The notes below the pieces were generated by a model. The model made no database searches. It was not told the origin of the DNA and worked only from the letters and a program-made list of their open reading frames with translations. Shown piece by piece: positions 5,498 to 49,726 of a stretch of 64,000 bases of DNA; the first letter of the stretch is position 1; each line of letters starts with the position of its first letter. Position numbers and translations under genes: made by a program. The DNA lies in assembly GCA_010015805.1 (NCBI GenBank), contig ML978134.1, forward strand, positions 1-64,000, in the 5' to 3' direction. Source of the DNA: Rhizodiscina lignyota (lineage: Eukaryota).

Positions 5498-7750
5498 ATG
5501 TCTGCCTGCATTGCCGGCGGTGAAGATCCGCAATCAGCTGGCCATATGACCATCGTACCACTTCCGAACGCCAGTCTAGAAACTCAGCAACAAGTCTCAG
5601 AGATCACTCCTCCACGTACGTGTCTGCAATGCCCTCGTCCATATTGGCTTCATGCTCCTCGTGCTCCAGCCGTATGCTTCAGCGTACTGGCAGGCGTATT
5701 ACTGGCGCGTTCCTGCATCAACCGTTGCGGCGCTCGTGAGATTGGTGCGCGCCGTCTGGTCAAAGCTTGGCCGGCACTTTGCTTTCTTCTTCACCATCCC
5801 ATCACACTTGCTCACGCGACGACATGATAGAAACGACATAGACGACTTTCGCGAACCTCGCAATATGGACGAGGACACGTTGAAGCAGTTGGAGGGCGCG
5901 AAAAGGCTGCCAATAGACCCGATAAAGGTCTTTCCACGAGACATCCAAATCGCCTCAGGAGGTCCAAACAGTCCAATACTTCCCTCGCCAGCAGAACATA
6001 TCGGACAACCAAGCAGTCCGACGACGAGAACGACAGTCGCAAATGATACTACAGTCCAGAATGATACCACAAACACCTCGTCGTCGCGTCTTCACACCCG
6101 CTCCATGTCTGTCGCCGATGTGGCAAGACAAGGCAAGCGCCTTTCGCTGAACTTTCCCATCCAAAGTGCAAGCAGCAGACCTACACGACCTCCGTCATGG
6201 GCAAACAGCAGCCCTGTTCTACCCCCAATACCCTCGCCTGACCCATCTGTCGCACCATCACCGACCGAGAACAATTTCCTCGCCGTTCTTGCCGCACAAG
6301 AACGCCGCGTCTTGGAGTTGAAAGAGGAGCTCGGCAAGGCAGAGAAGGAGCTTGAGATGCTCAAGAAACAATGGGCCCAGCATGAGATGGTGCGCAAGAA
6401 GCAGGACGTAAAGCGTGTCACGCAGCTGCAACCTCTGCAGACTGCTCCGTCCCCGGGTTTGGACAGCGGCAACGACAGTGATGACATTGATGGATCAAGC
6501 CAGTGGATGCACAAGGAGATGGAGAGGCGCAAACACCTGTTGAGTGGTGTCAAGAGCAGCAATCGAAAGGTCTTTAGTGGTAGTCGCCACATGAGGACAC
6601 TGAGTCTGCTGTCGCCTGATAAGACTCAGGGACCATCTTTTCCTCAACCTCCATCGTTGGACGGCACAGATGAATCAAGGCCGCCTTCAGCAACTGCACT
6701 AGGACTTCCTATACCGCGATCCACCATAAGTCCGAACAATATAGAAGAGACTCAACGTTCGTTCACACCGGACAGTGCTTCGGACAGCATGGTATCGTTG
6801 GATCTACCCAGGCTACCCAGCGATGCCATCCTCCAAACCGGGAAGCAGATGGCAACAGACTTCAAACAGGGTCTATGGACATTCTTCGAGGACATCAGAC
6901 AAGCTACCGTCGGCGAGGAAGCTATCCATGGCACCACTCCGCGCCGACGTCCGCAGAGCATGTATGCTGCTGGACCCAATGCAAAGCATAGCAATGGCAA
7001 TCTGAAGAAACAAGGAAGTCGGGGTAACTTGCGGAGGTCGGCTACATTAAAACAGGACTCCAAGGATCCGCTGAAAAATGGCTCGCTTCAGCGAAGAGCT
7101 ACAGATCTATCACCGCCTGCGGACATAGGAGGTTCATTTTGGCGTGAGAATGGGCTCGAGGAGCCTCGGACCACTACCGCTGCGAAAGTGAGGCCGGGCA
7201 GCAGAGGAAGCACTGGCAAGACTCACAAGGGAATGGAGAAAACGGCACATGATGCTACAGATGATGAGAGCTGGGACTCTTGGGACACACCAGCGAGCAA
7301 GGCTGAGCCGTCACCGAAGCAGCTACAAGCACCAGGGATGAGCAGCAATGATTCAGTCTCTGAAGTCGCGTCCTCGGCAAGAAGCACACCGAGGACTAGT
7401 ACTAGGTCCGTTCATCCTCCTCTCCTCTCGCCACACCTCTAACGCACTGTAGCTCGACCGGTCTTGCTGCTACAACATCCAAATCCACCGATACCCAAAA
7501 CGACGCCAGCCACGGGTCTAACCGAGACTCTATTCCCTGGCCTGCGTTGGCAAAGCTCGTCACCCCATCCCATCTCAAGCGCACAGCGTCGCATCTGATG
7601 AGCGAGTGGGAGCGCAGCCTCACACCTTCTCCGCCGCCTGGACAGTCACCCGCAAGGCTGTCTCCAATTCCGAGCGACAGTGGCGAGAGGGATTACTTTG
7701 GAACTCCAGTTTTGGCGGCTGGCGAGAATGGGAGGAGTAAGAAGGACTGA
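5498..7750 (+). CDS. Conserved fungal coiled-coil/low-complexity protein (DUF4048-like); start and first intron uncertain
   Basis: Long ORF 5652-7442 with LAAQERRVLELKEEL…LKKQW coiled coil and GLWTFFEDIRQATVGEEA. Intron near 7405-7451 joins the last exon (…HLMSEWERSL…KKD*). A phase-compatible intron 5616-5841 could link to ATG 5498; otherwise the start is ATG 5865. Confidence 0.7.
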
Positions 7751-7950
7751 GGGTTTGTATTAATGTATCTAACGATTTGACACGAGTAATGGAATGTGTA
7801 TAGTATACTTACATATACAACTATAGAGATGTTAGAGCACTTAAGAGAATTTAAAGCGTTTGTCCATAACAGCAGTAGGTGGTTCCCTGGGATGCATTAT
7901 TTGCACTAACTCACAGTGTCATTTCTACTGCTGATGTATGACAAGATTGG

Positions 7951-9018
7951 TTACGCGTCTAGTTCTATGATCCAGACATCTCCCAGCCGACTGTTGTCTT
8001 CTGCAAGTCCCCCATGTACAACTATCGCATCCTTCATCTCAACGTCAGCTACGACATCTGCGTCGAACCAGCCTCTTGGCGGCGGCAATTCACCGCTTGC
8101 TTCCACTTTACTCCAAATCCCAAGCTCAACGTCATACGCCCAGACATCTCCAAGCATTTTCCCAGCCCCGGCATGTCCGAGTGAACTTGGATCACGCTCA
8201 CCAAAGAGCGTTACGAGAAAAGGCTTGCCGTCCAACTGGAGAGGAAGCAGAGCACTAACGCTGCGCGCTTCTGGACCATTTTTACCATCTGCAGGATACG
8301 GAACCACAGACCATGAATCCTGCGAAGGGTCGTACACGTCCAAGTTTCCACCTTGCTCTTGCTTCCCGTCGAAGCCGTTCATGCGGTACAGCTTACCAGC
8401 GCAGTACGCGATCGACGTGCCTCCTCGAGGCGGGTTCGGCGCATCGGCTAGACTCTTCCATGTCCTTGTGTTGACGTCGAAGGACCACAGATCGGAGAGC
8501 CGCCCGCTTTCTGGGCAACCGGCGTGCACATAGATCGTACTATTGCCGTTGTTCGTCATTGCGTGATAGCTGCGAGCCGCGGGATATGGGGCTGCAACAT
8601 CGGCAGGGGAAACCAGAGACCATTGAGAGGTGGACGGCTTGTAACTCCACAGTTGACCGTTTTCTTCGATAGGCGCCATGGCCATACCGCCGCGGCCGGA
8701 GAAGAAATAAATCGCATCGCCGAGCACGGTGCTTGCGGAGCCGACTCGTGGTGTTGGGGCTTCACCCTGCGCGGGAATCGTTTGCACAGCTGCGGATGCT
8801 ATTGAATATGAGCAAGTGGCGCATGGATCTGCCTAGCAATGCCATTTCGTACCCTTGGAGAGCTCAACCACATCGAATTGGTTGTCCACGGGCTGGCGGG
8901 GATGCAGTTCGCCGCCGAAGATCCAGGCGTTGTTCGCGATCACAGAGACTGTGTGCGAGGAGCGCTGAAGACGAGCGCTGGATGCTAGGCATGTGCATTT
9001 AGCGGTGATTGGAGCCAT
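7951..9018 (-). CDS. Kelch-repeat beta-propeller protein, nitrile-specifier-protein-like; one intron near 8800-8853
   Basis: Kelch blades RSSH…IFGGE, PRVGSA…FSGRGG, RSYH…HAG, PRGGT…NGFDG, ARSV…LFGE, PRGW…HGG. ATG at 9018 (MAPITAK). Confidence 0.8.
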
Positions 9019-14679: not shown

Positions 14680-16689
14680 ATGAGTTATATCCATTCGTGC
14701 CAGTACTGTTCATCTGTCACAATCCATTCCCATCGATCGGCGAGAAGGCCTGTCTATGTTCTTGAGGACACTCCCACACGCACTCTAAAAGCAGCTCCAT
14801 TGAATTTGTCGTTTAATGAGGCTGTGTTTGGGGCTAGAAAGGGGTGCCCTTTCCTACAATGGGTAACTTCGCTGTCTTCCGCGAAGGAAAAGACATGTCT
14901 TAACGTTATTTGGAGCGGGAACTATCCCCTGGACTCCGCCGTCCCGGCCAACCCCTGGATTTGGTGGTTGGGAGAAACCCAAGAGAACCCAGAAAATATT
15001 TTTAGGACTGTTCACAAGATTCTCGCAGAGAAGGCCAACATACTGCTATGCGCAGAAGAGAAGTAACATTGTCCCTTTTTTTTTGGGGTGTGCCACCACC
15101 AGAATCTTGCTGATCACACGCACAGCGACCCAGCCGCAGAAGACTTCAATACTCGTCCTCCAGCTTTAAATCTTCAACTGAAGACTCGATTTGTGCAAGC
15201 AAGAGGATGGCTCGAGGAATGTGTTAAGACCCACAAATGCAGAGAAGAAAACGCCTTTGTGCCAAGTCATTTAATCCTAATCGACAGCACGGCGAACCCT
15301 CCCAATCTTAGACTTGTCACTCGAGAGGAAACTAGCGGCATATTCTTAGAATATGCCGCACTGAGCTATTGCTGGGGCAAAACTCAGGATTTTACCCTTA
15401 CATCATCATCGCTTGAAAGTTTTCTGTCCTCGATTCCATACGACAAATTACCTCAGACAATTAAAGACGCCATTCTAGTAACATCCGAGATGGGCCTGCG
15501 TTATTTGTGGGTTGATGCTTTTTGCGTTATTCAAGATAGTAATGAAGAAAAGGCAAAAGAGATCGGCCAGATGGCAGAGATATACGATCATGCTCATGTC
15601 ACAATTGCGGCTTCTAAAGCCAAGTCTGTGAACGAAGGTTTTCTCTGGTGGCCAAGAATCGAAATGATCCGACTTGGATACGAATGCTCAAGTGGAGAGA
15701 TAGGATCTGTTCTGTTCTCACCTGAGCTTAACGGAGATACGAGATTCTCGCCTGAGCCTCTTGACACTCGCGGATGGGCTTTGCAAGAAGAGCTTCTCTC
15801 ACCTAGACGGCTTGAATTCGGCACGTACCAATCGAGATGGACCTGCCGTGAGACTGTAAAAGAAGACGAGACTGTGGTGGATGGTTGGCTAAAACGCAAA
15901 GTTACAAGCCCTTACATGTACGGTCGTGTACTGTCCCCTCAACCTGTCAGTTGGTGGGATATTGTTGAAATATACACTACACGCAGTCTTTCGGACCCAC
16001 ACGATAGGCTTCGGGCTATATCAGCCGTTGCCAGGAAATTGGGCGAGTTGTCTCGGGATGAATACGTGGCTGGACTATGGAGATCTTCATTCATTAAGGG
16101 ACTCCATTGGGGAAATTTCGCACAGGAACAAACGAAAAAGGAGGAGGATATGCACCTGGGAAGGCTGAAGAATGAAGATTCAGATTTACATGGTACAGCT
16201 CCGTATATCGCGCCGTCATGGTCGTGGGCGTCCGTCAGCCATCCGGTCGAATTCCACTATTTTTATGCTCCCAACGAACTCCAGCAAGTTAAAATAGCGA
16301 TCATCGATATACGGACCAAAACAGAACCTCCAGATGATCCATACGGGCCTTTGTGTGATGGCTCTCTCAAGATCAAAGGTCCTTGTTGTAGCTTTGTGGT
16401 AGGAGAGCGCTCGGAATTACATGCCGTCAATAGTGATAATCAATTTGTAACGCATGTAAGCTTTCCTAGTGTACTGGTCGAGCTGGATATGGTTAGTGGT
16501 GATCATTTGTTTCTATTGCTCCTTTCTGTAAGGCACGGGGAAGGTTATTGCTTAGTATTGAAGCAGACTGACGAAGAGCAGTATATAAGGGTTGGATTCA
16601 TGCGTCTAAGTGGACCTTCTCAATATCCAGTGCTTAGCTTTGAGTACAAGAAAGAGGAATGGAAAGAGCAAATTGTAACTATCCTATGA
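14680..16689 (+). CDS. HET-domain (heterokaryon incompatibility) protein; intron about 15063-15126
   Basis: RGWLEECVKTH, YAALSYCWG, LPQTIKDAI…LRYLWVDAFCVIQDS, MAEIYDHAHVTIAA, LDTRGWALQEELLSPR, YVAGLW, YIAPSWSWAS. Confidence 0.88.
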
Positions 16690-41421: not shown

Positions 41422-44335
41422 TTAACTCATGTTGTGGTCACGTATAGTCGCCAATTTGTCCAATTCTTCCTGCTTTTCCTTCACTCTTATCACTGTTACA
41501 TTACCTTCACCAACTGCTTTGATTAACTTGTCCAGATCTACATACCAACCCCTCGCCTCCTCCGGTCTTCCCTGAGCCTGCAAAACCATTCCGATATTGA
41601 CTCTACTGACCCAAGTCTGCCATACCTCACCCAGCTGTTGTTCCCGCTGCTCCAGAGCTTTATCATGCAAGCTTTTCGCCTCTTCCAACATTGCCACACC
41701 ATTGGGGCCTCCATCCTCCGCCCACAATCGGAGGCTTTCAGCCAGATTGTTGCGGCCGAACATCACTTGCCGGCTAACACTGAAATCGGGTTGGGAAAGA
41801 GCCTTCTCAAGAACATCGTGCTGGATCTGGATGGCCTCTGCATACTTCCTTTGCTGCTGTAATGCGCCTCCGAGATTGTTCTGAATCAGAATTACGTCTG
41901 GGTGTGCCAGGTTGTCTGCATGTCGCTCCATCTGCACCTGTAATAGGTCGCGGTACTGTGTCTCTGCCTTGCCCGAATCACCTTGCCGCAGATACAAGAG
42001 GGCCAGGGAGTTGCGCACGCGTAGCAAGGTAGGGTTAGCGCGTGGTGCGGTTTTACACAACTCAAACGCCTCTTCAAGGTGTCGCTGCGCTTTATCATAC
42101 CGAGACAACCGATCCAGCGTGATGCCTAAATTGAGGTGCGCGTTCAATGTGGTCAGGCCCGGCTCCGGCTCAATGTACGGCAAGAGGGTGATGAGCTCCT
42201 CCTGTTGCTCGGCCGCAGCAACGATCTCTCCTGCAGTGGACAGCGCTACGGATAGTTCCTTGCGTGCGTCGAAGAGACCCTGGGATGTCACGTCGGAACT
42301 GAGTTTCGCGTATTTCACAGCCTCCCTGTGCTGTTCGATGGCCTCCTTGTACCTGCCGAGTGGTGCGAGCATATTGCCCAGGTTGGTCATCGCTTGGATC
42401 ACATTGGGGTGCGTCTTGGGCATATCTCGAAGGAAGAGCCTCAAGTTCTCCTCAGCCTGGGCCCGCCCTTTCTCCCATTTCCCTGTCAACCCGTACAGAC
42501 GGACTAGAGAGTTACGCGCAATAATGCCGCTCTTGTTGTTCTTACCGTATAGTTTTATTGCTCCTTGGGCGCCTTGAAGCAGTCGAACCTCCGCAGCCTG
42601 CCACTTGCCTTGCTCCATAAGTACAGCTCCGTAGGCACCGCTGTGTATCAACAGTCGCCAGTCGTCTGGCTCGAGGGTGGTTGTATAGATGCTCTCGATG
42701 ATTTCGTGAATGACTGCCGCCTCGTCCGGCTTGTCCATCATCATTTCCGTGTAGGCAACATGCTCTGCTACTTCCATGGTGCGCATATCAGTCGTTCCGT
42801 ATACTTGCTCGCAGATCGTTTCGGCGTCGCAGAAGTATTTGTGCGCTTCAGGAAGCTTGGACATACGTTCCCTATATATTCCCAGCTTGCACAGCAGAGC
42901 TTCCCGTGACTTCTGAAGCCGCATCCAATCCTCTTTGGAGAGGTTGGTCACCCTGCCATCGGTCGTAAACAGGAGTGGGAATCTGCAATCTGTGGCCTCG
43001 TAGATTATGGTCTGTGGTATAGCCTGCCGTAATGCTTGCCGTATATGGGGAATGAGTGCCTCGCATGTCTGCAAGAGCATTGACCTGTGGACTTTGCCGA
43101 ACAATGCGTCCAGGTCTTTGACGGCGTCCCAATGGTACGACGCCAGTGTGCCGTCTTCAGACAGCCGCTTGTAAAGATATGTCCGTATCAGCTCATTCAT
43201 GAAACACTGGTATCCATCGCGTGAGCAGCCGATCAAGGAAAGCGACAGCAATCTGCGGAGGCCGCGCCGGACCTCAAGAGTGTAATGGGGAGATTCCTCG
43301 GCCCAGGCGATATAGAGAAGTGGCAGCGGCATGCCTTGTGTGTCAAGGGCAGACATGCAGCATAACATCTCATATGACTTGTCGTTGCTTCTCGCGACGT
43401 AATCGACAGCCGCCTTCAAGGTGAGCTCCAATGTGTTTGATGCTTCGCTCGATACCTGTTTCTTCAATTGGTGCCAGGCATCTTCTTCGTCGTTCATCCT
43501 CATATATTGGGAGCCAAATGCAGCAAACAGAGCAAGGCCAACCGGTGAGTACTGCAGGCTTTTCAGGGTCTGGTTTGTCTCGTGACCTTTCAGTCTGCCC
43601 TCTGACAACCTTGTGTCCAGAAATTTTTTGGCTTCATCATTCGAGAACGAATCCATTTCGATGAGGCGCATCTTTCCCGTATCAATTCCATTCTCTAAGA
43701 GAACTGACAATTCGAGTCTTGTTGTTATGAGTACTCTCCCAAGCAAAGGTTTGAAAGTATTCAGGAAATTGACCAGTGCTACCTTCTCCATCTCCGGAAA
43801 GCAGTCGAATGACAAGTCGTCGAAAACTAAATGCCTCTTGGCATCGGAATTTTGGCTGTTGTACCATGCAATGAACTGTCTTAGGCCATCAACGTTAGCC
43901 CGATGAATGCCCAAGTCCCGTAGAAGCGTCCCAATTGATTGTTCTAGTCTCCAGAAGCCCCGTGATGAGAGCCACATGAATAGCTCGTCCGGCCTTTGAT
44001 CTCTATTCCTGTATGCATGCTCGATAGCAACATGTGTCTTCCTGAGCTCTGTGTTAGTGGTGATTGCAGGCCATTTAAGGGATATTGAAACTAACCCAGT
44101 TCCCGATGGCCCGTGAAGAATTATGACGCTATTGTAGTTGAGTTTTCGAAGAAATTCGTCTCGTCCGACAAACTTTGCATCCCTCGGAAGTTCCATAATA
44201 TGCGTGTCAGAGAGTGTTAACTGACGCCCTTGTCGTGGAGATAAATCACCCCTTCATGAATGGTCCTCGCTCAATCAACGCTTTAACATGATTGACAGCG
44301 CACGCTGGCAGGAATGATTGAACTTTCTTGTTCAT
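41422..44335 (-). CDS. NLR-like STAND protein: NB-ARC + TPR repeats, with no N-terminal effector domain
   Basis: FVGR, Walker A GPSGTG|KT (split by intron 44042-44095), Walker B HLVFDD, VLITTR, PVGLAL, then kinesin-light-chain-type TPRs (HPNVIQAMTNLG, HPDVILIQNNLG). Start is ATG 44196, or ATG 44335 via intron 44252-44303. Confidence 0.85.
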
Positions 44336-44535
44336 GAGATTTTCAGCTTTCCGGAATAAAATAGGAGAAATTGTTCAATATTCGTAGCTGAACAAAGGAA
44401 AACACGCTAGTTGGTATCTGATTAGCGTTGCCTAACTGGGAACCACCCCCTGAATCTTTATTTAGTCTGTGAGTCTGGACCTTCGAATTTCCAGAGCGAT
44501 AAAACTTCTTCAAGAATTCGCAACATACCTCTGAG

Positions 44536-47082
44536 ATGGAGCATATTCACAGCGGCTCTGGTAAAAGGCCAGAATTACAATTCCCCTGTCTGGTTAGTAG
44601 ACTCAACACAATTACTAACCGAAAATGCCAATGGCACGAATATCCAAAAGTCCGAGACTATGACTTCGAGGACATCCGGTTCTATCAGTGGCAAAAATTC
44701 CCAGCCAGGGAGTTTGCGACGTTCCTACAGGACTGGCTTTTCTTTGGACTCCTGCGCGCTATCTTACCGGCGGAAATTGTCGTGCGCGTGGACGACTTCG
44801 TCAGAACGAACGACAGAGGAGAGAGGTACATTACCACGCACAAATTGGTGAATGACTATCTCAAACCATGGGAAAAGATTCTCAGTGAAATGCCCGAGGA
44901 AGAGATGAGAAAGCTTACCAAAGAAAATCGACGGGTCTTGGAAAAAGCGAGGAATCTCAGCTATCACCTGTCCGAGTTACCTCGTGCGCTTGGCCCCCAC
45001 CTCTTCCCGCCCTTACAGTTGGAATGTGTACTACCATGTGCACTTCTGGGTCATGCTCTATCAATCTCAAACGCCTCTCCTATCACTAATGATGCCCTTT
45101 GCCATGCTTGGACTACTGGAGACCTGATAGCAGAGCAGATGGAGCTACAAGGCTGGTGTCCCTTCATTGTCTGCGGTATAAAACACTCCCACGACATCAC
45201 GACGCGTTGCTACTTTACGACCTTGGGCCGGCCGAAGACGAAGAAATATAAAACCCCGCGGAACCACGCCAGATGCACTGACACGCTCTGTGACCAAACG
45301 AGGATCAAGGATGCCCAGCATACCACGCAGCATTGTACGTGCGCCACGCTCCTGCCACCTGTAGCTCGTGTAGCAGAAGCTATCAGAAATGCATCAACCC
45401 CTGTGCTCCAATATCTACCACCCACAGACTCTGCTCTATCCAGCCTAAGCTTCGGATTCTCGAACAGCAGCTCTCCATACGTGGCCATCTCACACGTATG
45501 GGCTGACGGTCTAGGCAATCCGAGGGGAAATGAGACTCCTGATTGCCAGGCCAAGCGTCTTCAGCAGGCCGTGGATCGGATATTCCATATTCCCAAAAAT
45601 TCGAAATCAACTGGAAGTGGTGGCGGGTGGTGGTGGCTCGACACGCTGTGCGTGCCTGCTGACAAGAAAAAGTATGAGAAAGAGTACGAAAAAGCTATCA
45701 GGCAGATGAAAATGATCTATGCACAGGCTGATAGCGTTCTGATTATCGACTCAGGTCTCGAGACTTGCGATGATGATACCTCTACCCTGGAAGTCCTCGC
45801 GCGCCTGCGACTGTCAAACTGGATCCGACGTCTCTGGTGTTATCAAGAGGGCCAATTTGCCAAATCAATCTACGTGCTAGTTGGGTCGACGCCAAGGTCA
45901 TGGGATGACATCGCGGACGCAGCAATTCAGCTTCCGAGGGAAGGATACCAAAGACGTATTGCCGAGGAGTTGATGAACACCTACAGCAAGCTCTTTTTTC
46001 CGCGCATCATGAACGAAACCTTCGTAGATGAGCCCGAACCTTTGGATTCTGGAGTTGGAGCTATCAATATGGAAGTGGGAGAGGTTCCAGGGGAATCTCC
46101 TTTCATCACTGAGCGAGTGCTATCAGAGGTCATCGAACAGCTATCCAACCGGGTTGCAACGAATATAAGAGATGAGCCTCAGTGCCTCTCCTTGCTCCTG
46201 AATTTGAACACAAAACTGGTACAAGATGCTGTAAAAGAAGAGGAATGCGAAGAATGTAAAGTAAATGAACCCAATTGTGCCGAAGGAGACAGAGGAGATC
46301 CACCTGGAGTTGAGCAAAAGAAAAGCAGTGATTCCAACGATCATTTCTCAATCCCCTCCGAAGCTGGTATGGTCATGCTCCTGCGGTTGGCCAACCAAGC
46401 TGCCAAGTTGACGCCAGATCACGTACGGCCTCGTGGATGTTTTCCGCCATCGATGATCTTTCCCACTGGCCGGCGCTTACGTCGACGTGGCTTCCGCTGG
46501 GCACCACAGTCGTACCTTTACTCCGGAGCCCTCCAGAGCTTCAGCTCTTTCTTACCACTGAAAGTCCACGATGCACGCTTTCGAATCACCCGCGACCGAC
46601 CGTCCGGGCTGCTTTGTGAGAGCGAGCATGGGTTGAGGGTCATGTATCCTGGACTACTCATAACCGACATCGACTCTGTCAGGCCTGTGGCCGAACATTT
46701 CATTATTGACTCGTCCGATGAACCAATTGAGGGCATGCCCAAGTTCTGGAGATGTACATACACGAAAGATGTCCAAGGCGGGGGCGGTGCATGGGAGGAT
46801 ATTGCACCCAGGTCGAATTCGGACTCATGCGACAAGATGGACATGCGCCAGCTGGCGATCATTGTTGACGGCTTCAATAACTTGGACTCTTCTCAGAGCT
46901 TCTCCAGCATTCTAGTAAAAGTTACGGGCGAGTGCCCTGAAGGTGGTTATACTGTGCAACGCCTTGGCAGGTTGGTTGGGGCTGCGACTCCAAAGGATGA
47001 TGATTATGAATGGATGCGAGATCCCTGGCTACGTGTGAAGGGCAGCTGGCTGCCATTGACTCAGATGTGGTGCGTTGACTGA
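44536..47082 (+). CDS. HET-domain protein (848 aa, intronless)
   Basis: FLQDWLFFGLL, GWCP, H..CT…C, YVAISHVWADGLGNP..N..P.CQ, WLDTLCVP, MIYAQADSVLIID, WIRRLWCYQEG, GFRWAPQS, terminal WCVD. Confidence 0.9.
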   Translation: MEHIHSGSGKRPELQFPCLVSRLNTITNRKCQWHEYPKVRDYDFEDIRFYQWQKFPAREFATFLQDWLFFGLLRAILPAEIVVRVDDFVRTNDRGERYITTHKLVNDYLKPWEKILSEMPEEEMRKLTKENRRVLEKARNLSYHLSELPRALGPHLFPPLQLECVLPCALLGHALSISNASPITNDALCHAWTTGDLIAEQMELQGWCPFIVCGIKHSHDITTRCYFTTLGRPKTKKYKTPRNHARCTDTLCDQTRIKDAQHTTQHCTCATLLPPVARVAEAIRNASTPVLQYLPPTDSALSSLSFGFSNSSSPYVAISHVWADGLGNPRGNETPDCQAKRLQQAVDRIFHIPKNSKSTGSGGGWWWLDTLCVPADKKKYEKEYEKAIRQMKMIYAQADSVLIIDSGLETCDDDTSTLEVLARLRLSNWIRRLWCYQEGQFAKSIYVLVGSTPRSWDDIADAAIQLPREGYQRRIAEELMNTYSKLFFPRIMNETFVDEPEPLDSGVGAINMEVGEVPGESPFITERVLSEVIEQLSNRVATNIRDEPQCLSLLLNLNTKLVQDAVKEEECEECKVNEPNCAEGDRGDPPGVEQKKSSDSNDHFSIPSEAGMVMLLRLANQAAKLTPDHVRPRGCFPPSMIFPTGRRLRRRGFRWAPQSYLYSGALQSFSSFLPLKVHDARFRITRDRPSGLLCESEHGLRVMYPGLLITDIDSVRPVAEHFIIDSSDEPIEGMPKFWRCTYTKDVQGGGGAWEDIAPRSNSDSCDKMDMRQLAIIVDGFNNLDSSQSFSSILVKVTGECPEGGYTVQRLGRLVGAATPKDDDYEWMRDPWLRVKGSWLPLTQMWCVD

Positions 47083-47869: not shown

Positions 47870-49726
<1,857 letters not shown>

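Follow-up and report, generated by a model that had tools for sequence, protein, structure and literature searches.

The DNA analysed here, hereafter the window, is a stretch of 64,000 nt from Rhizodiscina lignyota (a Dothideomycete), and our subject is a pair of divergent genes within it, one encoding a protein that resembles the NOD-like receptors (NLRs) and the other a protein with a HET domain. An earlier note, made from the letters alone, had proposed that the pair forms a two-gene sensor/executor immune module. Both open reading frames (ORFs) were found at the coordinates it gave (41422..44196, minus strand, and 44536..47082, plus strand), and the HET ORF encodes 848 aa, as it had stated. 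The stretch is covered as a single piece, without joints, by X1, a DNA run and probably the source assembly. By our reading of the ORFs, the locus is composed as follows (window coordinates, strand, feature):

41422..44196, minus strand: gene for an effector-less NLR-like protein of the STAND type (signal transduction ATPase with numerous domains), 906 aa, with KAF2094355.1 (P0003) as its spliced product
44196..44096, minus strand: exon 1 of the NLR gene (gene model)
44095..44042, minus strand: intron of the NLR gene, 54 nt, in frame, GTTAGT...CACTAAC...CAG, inside the Walker A loop (between GPSGTG and KT)
44041..41422, minus strand: exon 2 of the NLR gene, stop included
42958..44196, minus strand: NB-ARC-like nucleotide-binding oligomerisation domain (NOD), aa 1-395, with Walker A, Walker B, sensor and GLPL-like motifs
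41425..42897, minus strand: sensor-type region of tetratricopeptide repeats (TPRs), aa ~416-906, kinesin-light-chain type (TPR_12/TPR_10)
44197..44535, no strand: divergent intergenic region, 339 bp
44536..47082, plus strand: intronless HET-domain gene, 848 aa
44536..45435, plus strand: N-terminal domain of the HET protein, aa 1-300, without a Pfam family
45436..45975, plus strand: HET (TIR-related) core, aa ~301-480, with the Pfam match at aa 315-407
46354..47079, plus strand: C-terminal domain of the HET protein, aa 607-848 (PSEAGM...MWCVD), the part that is fused to a NOD in the protein P0008 described below

Removal of the intron from the NLR gene yields a protein of 906 aa that is, letter for letter, the record KAF2094355.1, "TPR-like protein [Rhizodiscina lignyota]", and only after this removal is the Walker A motif (G29-T36, GPSGTGKT, with K35) complete. 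The 848-aa HET ORF is likewise identical, letter for letter, to its NCBI/UniRef record. A metagenome scan gave three further loci (L001, L002 and L003), and in all three the tblastn match to the NLR resumes at K35, indicating an intron at the same position in the P-loop. Only ~8 residues stand ahead of FVGRD, where the NOD begins, with no N-terminal effector or signalling domain among them, and the start MELP..RDA[KN]F[VI]GRD is kept in L001, L002 and L003. Since both this start and the intron position recur in three loci, the NLR is truly without an N-terminal output domain, in agreement with the earlier note, which had allowed at most about 30 aa before the nucleotide-binding domain. An upstream exon that supplies an effector is not needed, given the conservation of the MELP start. 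The alternative start at ATG 44335 lies in another frame and meets a stop after 29 codons; it was rejected, and with it the shorter of the two spacings that had been considered (200 bp). The longer one, about 340 bp, was borne out, the two genes lying head-to-head with 339 bp from ATG to ATG.

The TPRs of the NLR are well matched in Pfam (TPR_12, 7e-37; TPR_10, 8.6e-21), and a sequence search of the PDB related them to the TPRs of kinesin light chain (1.5e-16). In the NCBIfam scan, FxSxx_TPR reached 247 bits, under its cut-off of 300. The NOD fails the formal threshold test for NB-ARC: Pfam PF00931 had no match on the NLR at E<=0.01, nor on the NOD alone at E<=10, and precomputed Pfam annotation places it in none of the 6 members of the NLR family. 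However, motifs, alignment and predicted fold all point to an NB-ARC-type domain. Besides Walker A, the protein carries a Walker B motif (HLVFDD, aa 104-109, with D108-D109), in which D108 is invariant in 15 sequences, a sensor (T140-T141-R142) and a GLPL-like motif (S199-L205). No variation is seen in D108, T140-T141-R142 or P200 among the family members and seven remote matches of NB-ARC-TPR type, six of which carry PF00931. The NOD also aligns from end to end by BLASTP (E 1e-16) with that of P0010, a TIR/SEFIR-NB-ARC-TPR protein in which PF00931 is recognised; residue 4 of the NLR aligns to residue 185 of P0010, whose NOD is preceded by TIR-type domains. In the Atlas, a source that we treat as giving leads, the model of residues 1-376 scored a TM of 0.79-0.83 to clusters of NB-ARC-TPR NLRs, and 10 of the 10 best named feature matches fell in the same family or clan. 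Its structural neighbours there include clusters of HET-NB-ARC-TPR (TM 0.81-0.82) and Patatin-NB-ARC-TPR proteins. By alignment, motifs and predicted-structure neighbours, the protein belongs with the NB-ARC-TPR NLRs, and it has the features that characterize STAND proteins, namely a P-loop with Walker A and B motifs together with repeats at the C-terminus that form a superstructure. The earlier description of an "NB-ARC-TPR gene" accordingly holds for the TPRs and for the motifs, alignment and fold of the NOD, but not for its Pfam score.

Two insertions specific to its lineage, one of 8 aa and one of 21 aa, are present in the NLR of R. lignyota at the border of NOD and TPRs (aa ~373-409; window ~42940-43040, minus strand). 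Both are absent from 5 of 5 aligned homologues. An unrecognised intron behind the 21-aa insertion was considered and rejected, the DNA there having no plausible splice sites.

In the HET protein, Pfam HET (PF06985) scored 37.1 bits against a cut-off of 22.5, over aa 315-407 and model positions 1-88 of 146 only; the rest of the core aligns to the window's canonical HET gene (hhalign, probability 87%). HET is a TIR-related domain, and the glutamate of its W..R.W..QE core is common to HET and TIR. The earlier note had called this core intact, and so it is: W429..R432.W434..Q437E438 is present, with E438 encoded by GAG at 45847-45849. S319, H320, V321, W322, D324, G325, W367, D369, W429, R432, L433, W434 and E438 are invariant in 52 family members, and Q437 is nearly so. 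In a 2023 review, an NADase or other enzymatic activity of HET domains is described as unproven (PMC10197012).

The protein represents a distinct subfamily of ~800 aa with N- and C-terminal domains of its own. The N-terminal domain (aa 1-300) matched no Pfam family, and when the profile of the HET family was compared with the sequences of the PDB, nothing came below E 0.6. Within the N-terminal domain, H244, C247, C252, H262 and C269 (window 45265-45342, plus strand) are invariant or nearly so in the 52 members and may form a metal-binding site. For the C-terminal domain, an exhaustive HMMER search found 24 proteins. Eighteen of these were scanned with Pfam, two proteins already known to belong to the family and four fragments no longer than 143 aa being set aside: ten have HET, seven are without a family (P0008 and short pieces) and one is an animal mucin. 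The likeness to the mucin, in its WxxW repeats, was dismissed as spurious, since it consisted of 16 weak phmmer repeats in P0159 and the comparison with the family profile by hhalign had a probability of 0.2%. The Atlas gave a lead to DUF8212 for this domain (0.91-0.92), while the Pfam scan had no match in it.

A second, canonical HET gene lies in the window at 15067-16686 (plus strand), 28 kb from the pair, with PF06985 at 103.9 bits over the full model (1-146). It has only the HET core in common with the 848-aa protein.

What counts for the pair is its conservation in relatives. The NLR homologue search gave 19 proteins, of which, leaving aside the record of the window itself, only 5 are closely related, and the HET search gave 143. 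NLR and HET homologues occur together on contigs of 7,145 bp (P0004/P0022), 5,640 bp (P0005/P0023), 258,255 bp (P0151/P0153), 51,447 bp (P0006/P0026) and 203,212 bp (P0155/P0179), a same-contig call resting on equal contig size and source of the two protein records. P0005 and P0151 share one 90% cluster, as do P0023 and P0153, so that these contigs, which are separate from the scanned loci in the case of P0004, P0005 and P0151 (and of P0008), represent five lineages together with L002, besides the window. The 7,145- and 5,640-bp contigs are so small that the NLR and HET genes must be neighbours on them; orientation is known for L002, where the HET gene lies on the opposite strand, head-to-head, with 343 bp between the ATGs and ~55% protein identity to the window. 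Over the 2.4 kb past the HET stop in L002 there is no ACH1 and no other flank in common with the window. It follows that the pair has lasted longer than the synteny around it. The tree of the NLR agrees with that of the HET protein, and their identities run in parallel (NLR/HET 78/75, 76/73, 55/53 and 55/57%). Since relatives keep the NLR and HET genes together, the two probably work as one unit. The co-occurrence and orientation of which the earlier note had asked are thus seen in five other lineages and in L002, respectively, although the position between a Dal5-type permease gene and ACH1 is not kept in L002. Judged by co-occurrence and by orientation beyond local synteny, the pair is a conserved two-gene module, with the L001/L003 lineage as an exception.

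A further link between the two genes is provided by P0008, an uninterrupted ORF of 590 aa on a 6,208-bp metagenome contig, in which the NOD is joined to the C-terminal domain of the HET protein, the latter occupying the place of the TPRs. Its NOD half is 79% identical to P0004/P0151 and its C-terminal half 75-76% identical to P0153/P0022, and the two halves stand at about the same distance from each of the other lineages. Given the divergent orientation of the two genes, one inversion that breaks each of them once would give a product of this type. At the sites in the window that correspond to the junction, no inverted repeat was found that would explain an assembly chimera. Among close relatives, neither a reciprocal HET-TPR protein nor a HET-NOD-TPR form was found: HET (PF06985) occurs in none of the 19 matches of the NLR search, and TPR or NB-ARC in none of the 120 matches listed among the 143 of the HET search.

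The NLR is an ATP switch without an output domain and needs a partner. Given the conserved pairing and the P0008 chimera, the adjoining HET protein is the obvious candidate, and the all-in-one HET- and Patatin-NB-ARC-TPR NLRs among the structural neighbours make HET with such a NOD-TPR a known working combination. Amyloid templating of the NWD2/HET-S kind, by which fungal NLRs may otherwise signal in trans, is excluded because no motif, amyloid-type or other, is shared by the NLR and the HET protein (best BLASTP E 2.4), and ~8 residues ahead of the NOD leave no room for one; here the earlier note had judged correctly. The pair is probably an amyloid-independent NLR/HET two-gene module. More specifically, we tentatively favour the reading that the two genes are inherited together and probably coupled in function, as a module of regulated cell death or immunity in which a switch acts on an executioner by direct contact; this is possible, but the case falls somewhat short of persuading us. 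The earlier sensor/executor proposal is thus supported in part: the pairing, the intact HET core and the missing effector stand, whereas the TPRs are not hypervariable and a het locus is without support.

If the module works in this manner, the TPRs would keep the NB-ARC-like switch inactive as long as no cue is bound, exchange of the nucleotide would then lead the NOD to oligomerise, and the oligomer would recruit and cluster the separate HET protein by direct contact and not by amyloid templating. Clustering would in turn activate the HET domain and bring about cell death. The direction, in which the TPRs sense and the HET protein executes, is one that we infer. The likeliest docking or regulatory part would be the C-terminal domain of the HET protein, because it is this domain that is fused directly behind the NOD in P0008. 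The complete proposal, that an effector-less NB-ARC-like/TPR switch activates a separate HET executioner in trans by direct docking, without an amyloid motif and with the C-terminal domain of the HET protein engaging the NOD, is in our estimation unlikely to hold in all its parts.

Several results weigh against a coupled module, and a rival account is that the two genes are independent neighbours from large and dynamic families, kept together by descent because a divergent spacer of 340 bp is rarely broken, with P0008 as a dead rearrangement or an assembly artefact. A genome of this kind holds roughly 11,000 genes. With ~40 NLRs per Pezizomycotina genome (PMC4986451) and 65-132 HET genes in two Sordariales (PMC10890737), our own calculation gives ~0.4-1 NLR/HET neighbour pairs per genome by chance. 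A single adjacency is thus about what chance provides, one more HET gene is present in this very window, and what is above chance is the conservation of the pair, not the adjacency. The relatives, moreover, all come from one narrow clade and are mostly metagenome contigs.

The linkage has also been loosened in one lineage. In L001, the 10 kb to either side of the NLR contain no HET homologue, and neither do the 2.4 kb upstream of it in L003. P0155 is 99.9% identical to the L001 NLR, and on the same 203,212-bp contig stands P0179, an intact HET orthologue of 850 aa; the L001 lineage has therefore not lost its HET gene, and, assuming that L001 and this contig are collinear, the two genes are linked there but >10 kb apart. 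In the NLR tree, the L001/L003 lineage falls inside the paired ones and is sister to L002 (support 0.999), from which it follows that the separation is secondary. Neither gene was lost upon it: the NLR is under purifying selection (dN/dS 0.24, dS 0.29, 386 codons, L001 vs L003) though the HET gene is >10 kb away, so that adjacency is not obligatory. Unlinked orthologues in relatives, which the earlier note had named as evidence against a module, are therefore mostly not what is seen, since in five lineages one contig carries both genes, and L001/L003 are the case in which distance has grown beyond 10 kb.

Between the NLRs of L001 and L003 the identity is 86%, and to the L002 NLR it is 65-67%; similarly, in the comparison of P0024, P0027 and P0179, the identity is 84-85% between the two HET proteins and 65-66% to the L002 HET protein. 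This mirrored divergence suggests P0024 as the HET orthologue of the L003 species. In L001, a 459-aa ORF at 6831-8210 (minus strand), with C2H2-like Cys/His patterns and without a Pfam family, lies head-to-head with the NLR at a distance of 1.8 kb.

Further points against coupling come from the breadth of the HET subfamily and from the spacer. The subfamily is wider than the NLR family, with 43% identity in Thozetella and full-length members of ~25% identity in lichen fungi, Aspergillus, Leotiomycetes and Basidiomycota; since it extends beyond the range of the NLR, the HET protein can exist without it. Alignment of the intergenic regions of the window and L002 revealed no conserved block beyond the two coding starts, and because the spacer DNA is not conserved, the bidirectional promoter that had been suggested finds its basis in the divergent geometry alone. 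In L002 itself, the HET gene (~4590, minus strand) contains 1 extra base, outside a homopolymer, that splits it into two overlapping frames, either by a very recent frameshift or by an assembly error; the downstream 717 codons remain open and conserved. P0008, known from its ORF alone, is a strong lead but falls short of proof. On balance, we nevertheless consider mere neighbourhood somewhat unlikely. It does not readily explain why both genes are retained in five other lineages down to ~50-55% identity, why orientation and spacing are kept in L002 while the flanks differ, or why the P0008 ORF is open with its halves equally conserved, and it leaves an NLR without an output domain in need of some partner.

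The variation among relatives bears on a different account, as well as on the earlier suggestions of hypervariable TPRs and a het locus. Identity is flat along both proteins (TPRs 77-83% vs NOD 73-78% in the NLR; C-terminal domain 76% vs HET core 80% in the HET protein), and variants inside the 90% metagenome clusters differ by ~5%, evenly spread; these results, too, belong on the unfavourable side for an immune module. The TPRs lack internally conserved repeat units, and their DNA is without repeat structure. Hypervariability is thus not found, the TPRs being no more diverged than the NOD and showing no conservation between internal repeats. Since no highly divergent alleles were seen in the metagenome clusters, which are not a population sample of the species, the het locus is without support.

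The account in question follows het-B of Podospora anserina, in which incompatibility is decided by a non-NLR HET protein (Bh) and the product of the adjacent gene (Bp), the HET protein owing its specificity to its C-terminal domain (PMC10890737). By analogy, the HET protein here would be both sensor and executioner by way of its own C-terminal domain, while the NOD-TPR protein would be a recognised or guarded target, an inhibitor or an antidote and not an upstream receptor. In its favour, a HET protein that is not itself an NLR, and whose large, conserved C-terminal domain is of recognition type, has its partner in the adjacent gene, this domain stands at the position of the NLR sensor domain in P0008, and the subfamily occurs without this NLR, as would be expected of an autonomous sensor-executor. 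However, het-B alleles are only 60-70% identical and under balancing selection (PMC10890737), and such highly divergent haplotypes are not seen here, where the differences amount to ~5%. The partner in het-B is a PII-like protein and here a STAND ATPase, whose intact switch motifs (Walker A/B and sensor) under purifying selection exceed the needs of a passive ligand. The C-terminal domain of the het-B protein has a lectin fold (PMC10890737), whereas that of the HET protein here has no assigned fold. A het-B-like arrangement is therefore quite unlikely in our view.

Returning to a coupled switch and executioner, two-gene fungal cell-death clusters are in themselves already known, including NWD2/HET-S, gasdermin/protease, het-B and NLR/SNARE clusters. 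Reportedly, plp-1/sec-9 is another case of an NLR with an adjacent guarded gene. Plant sensor/helper NLR pairs are often arranged head-to-head with a short shared upstream region and divide labour between two genes; both partners there are NLRs, whereas here only one is. In NWD2/HET-S-type clusters, an NLR with a short N-terminus is adjacent to an effector gene and signals by amyloid templating (PMC9815663, PMC10197012). A shared amyloid motif is found there and none between the proteins described here, and the partner there is a HeLo, sesA or PNP_UDP protein of 200-400 aa with a C-terminal motif rather than an 848-aa HET protein. The all-in-one HET-NB-ARC-TPR and HET-NACHT-WD40 (het-e/d/r) NLRs (PMC4986451) are built from the same kinds of modules (HET, NB-ARC-type NOD and TPRs), but these are fused, while here they are divided between two genes with HET in an internal position (aa ~301-480). 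Bcvic1/Bcvic2 of Botrytis, like the present pair, place an NLR and a functional partner side by side (bioRxiv 10.1101/2022.04.03.486892); NLRs of that type carry their own lipase/esterase effector and have a SNARE as partner, as opposed to an effector-less NLR with a death-domain partner.

Full-text searches of the literature turned up no case in which an effector-less NB-ARC-type/TPR gene forms a pair with a HET gene that stands alone. The NLR does not occur in 11 of the 13 supplementary files of PMC9815663, of which the remaining two could still hold it, and this absence fits the failure of Pfam to score its NOD. That study counted 11,634 fungal NLRs with short, unannotated N-termini, only 17% of them with amyloid-like motifs (PMC9815663), and it is on the question of the signalling partners of these thousands of NLRs that the pair bears. 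An output-less NLR, a stand-alone HET protein and a chimera that hints at the contacting domains together make a small system for testing the activation of HET in trans. If docking should prove true, it would be a so far undescribed signalling route for a fungal NLR.

A PADLOC scan of the window gave nothing useful. The flanks of the pair are as the earlier note had them. On one side, at 39.3-41.2 kb, is a transporter of the major facilitator superfamily, whose best NCBIfam match is TIGR00893 (family 2.A.1.14, which we take to be the family that holds Dal5), and on the other, at 48031-49399, is an acetyl-CoA hydrolase gene. Further out from the pair are genes for Cdc23 and a copper P-type ATPase.

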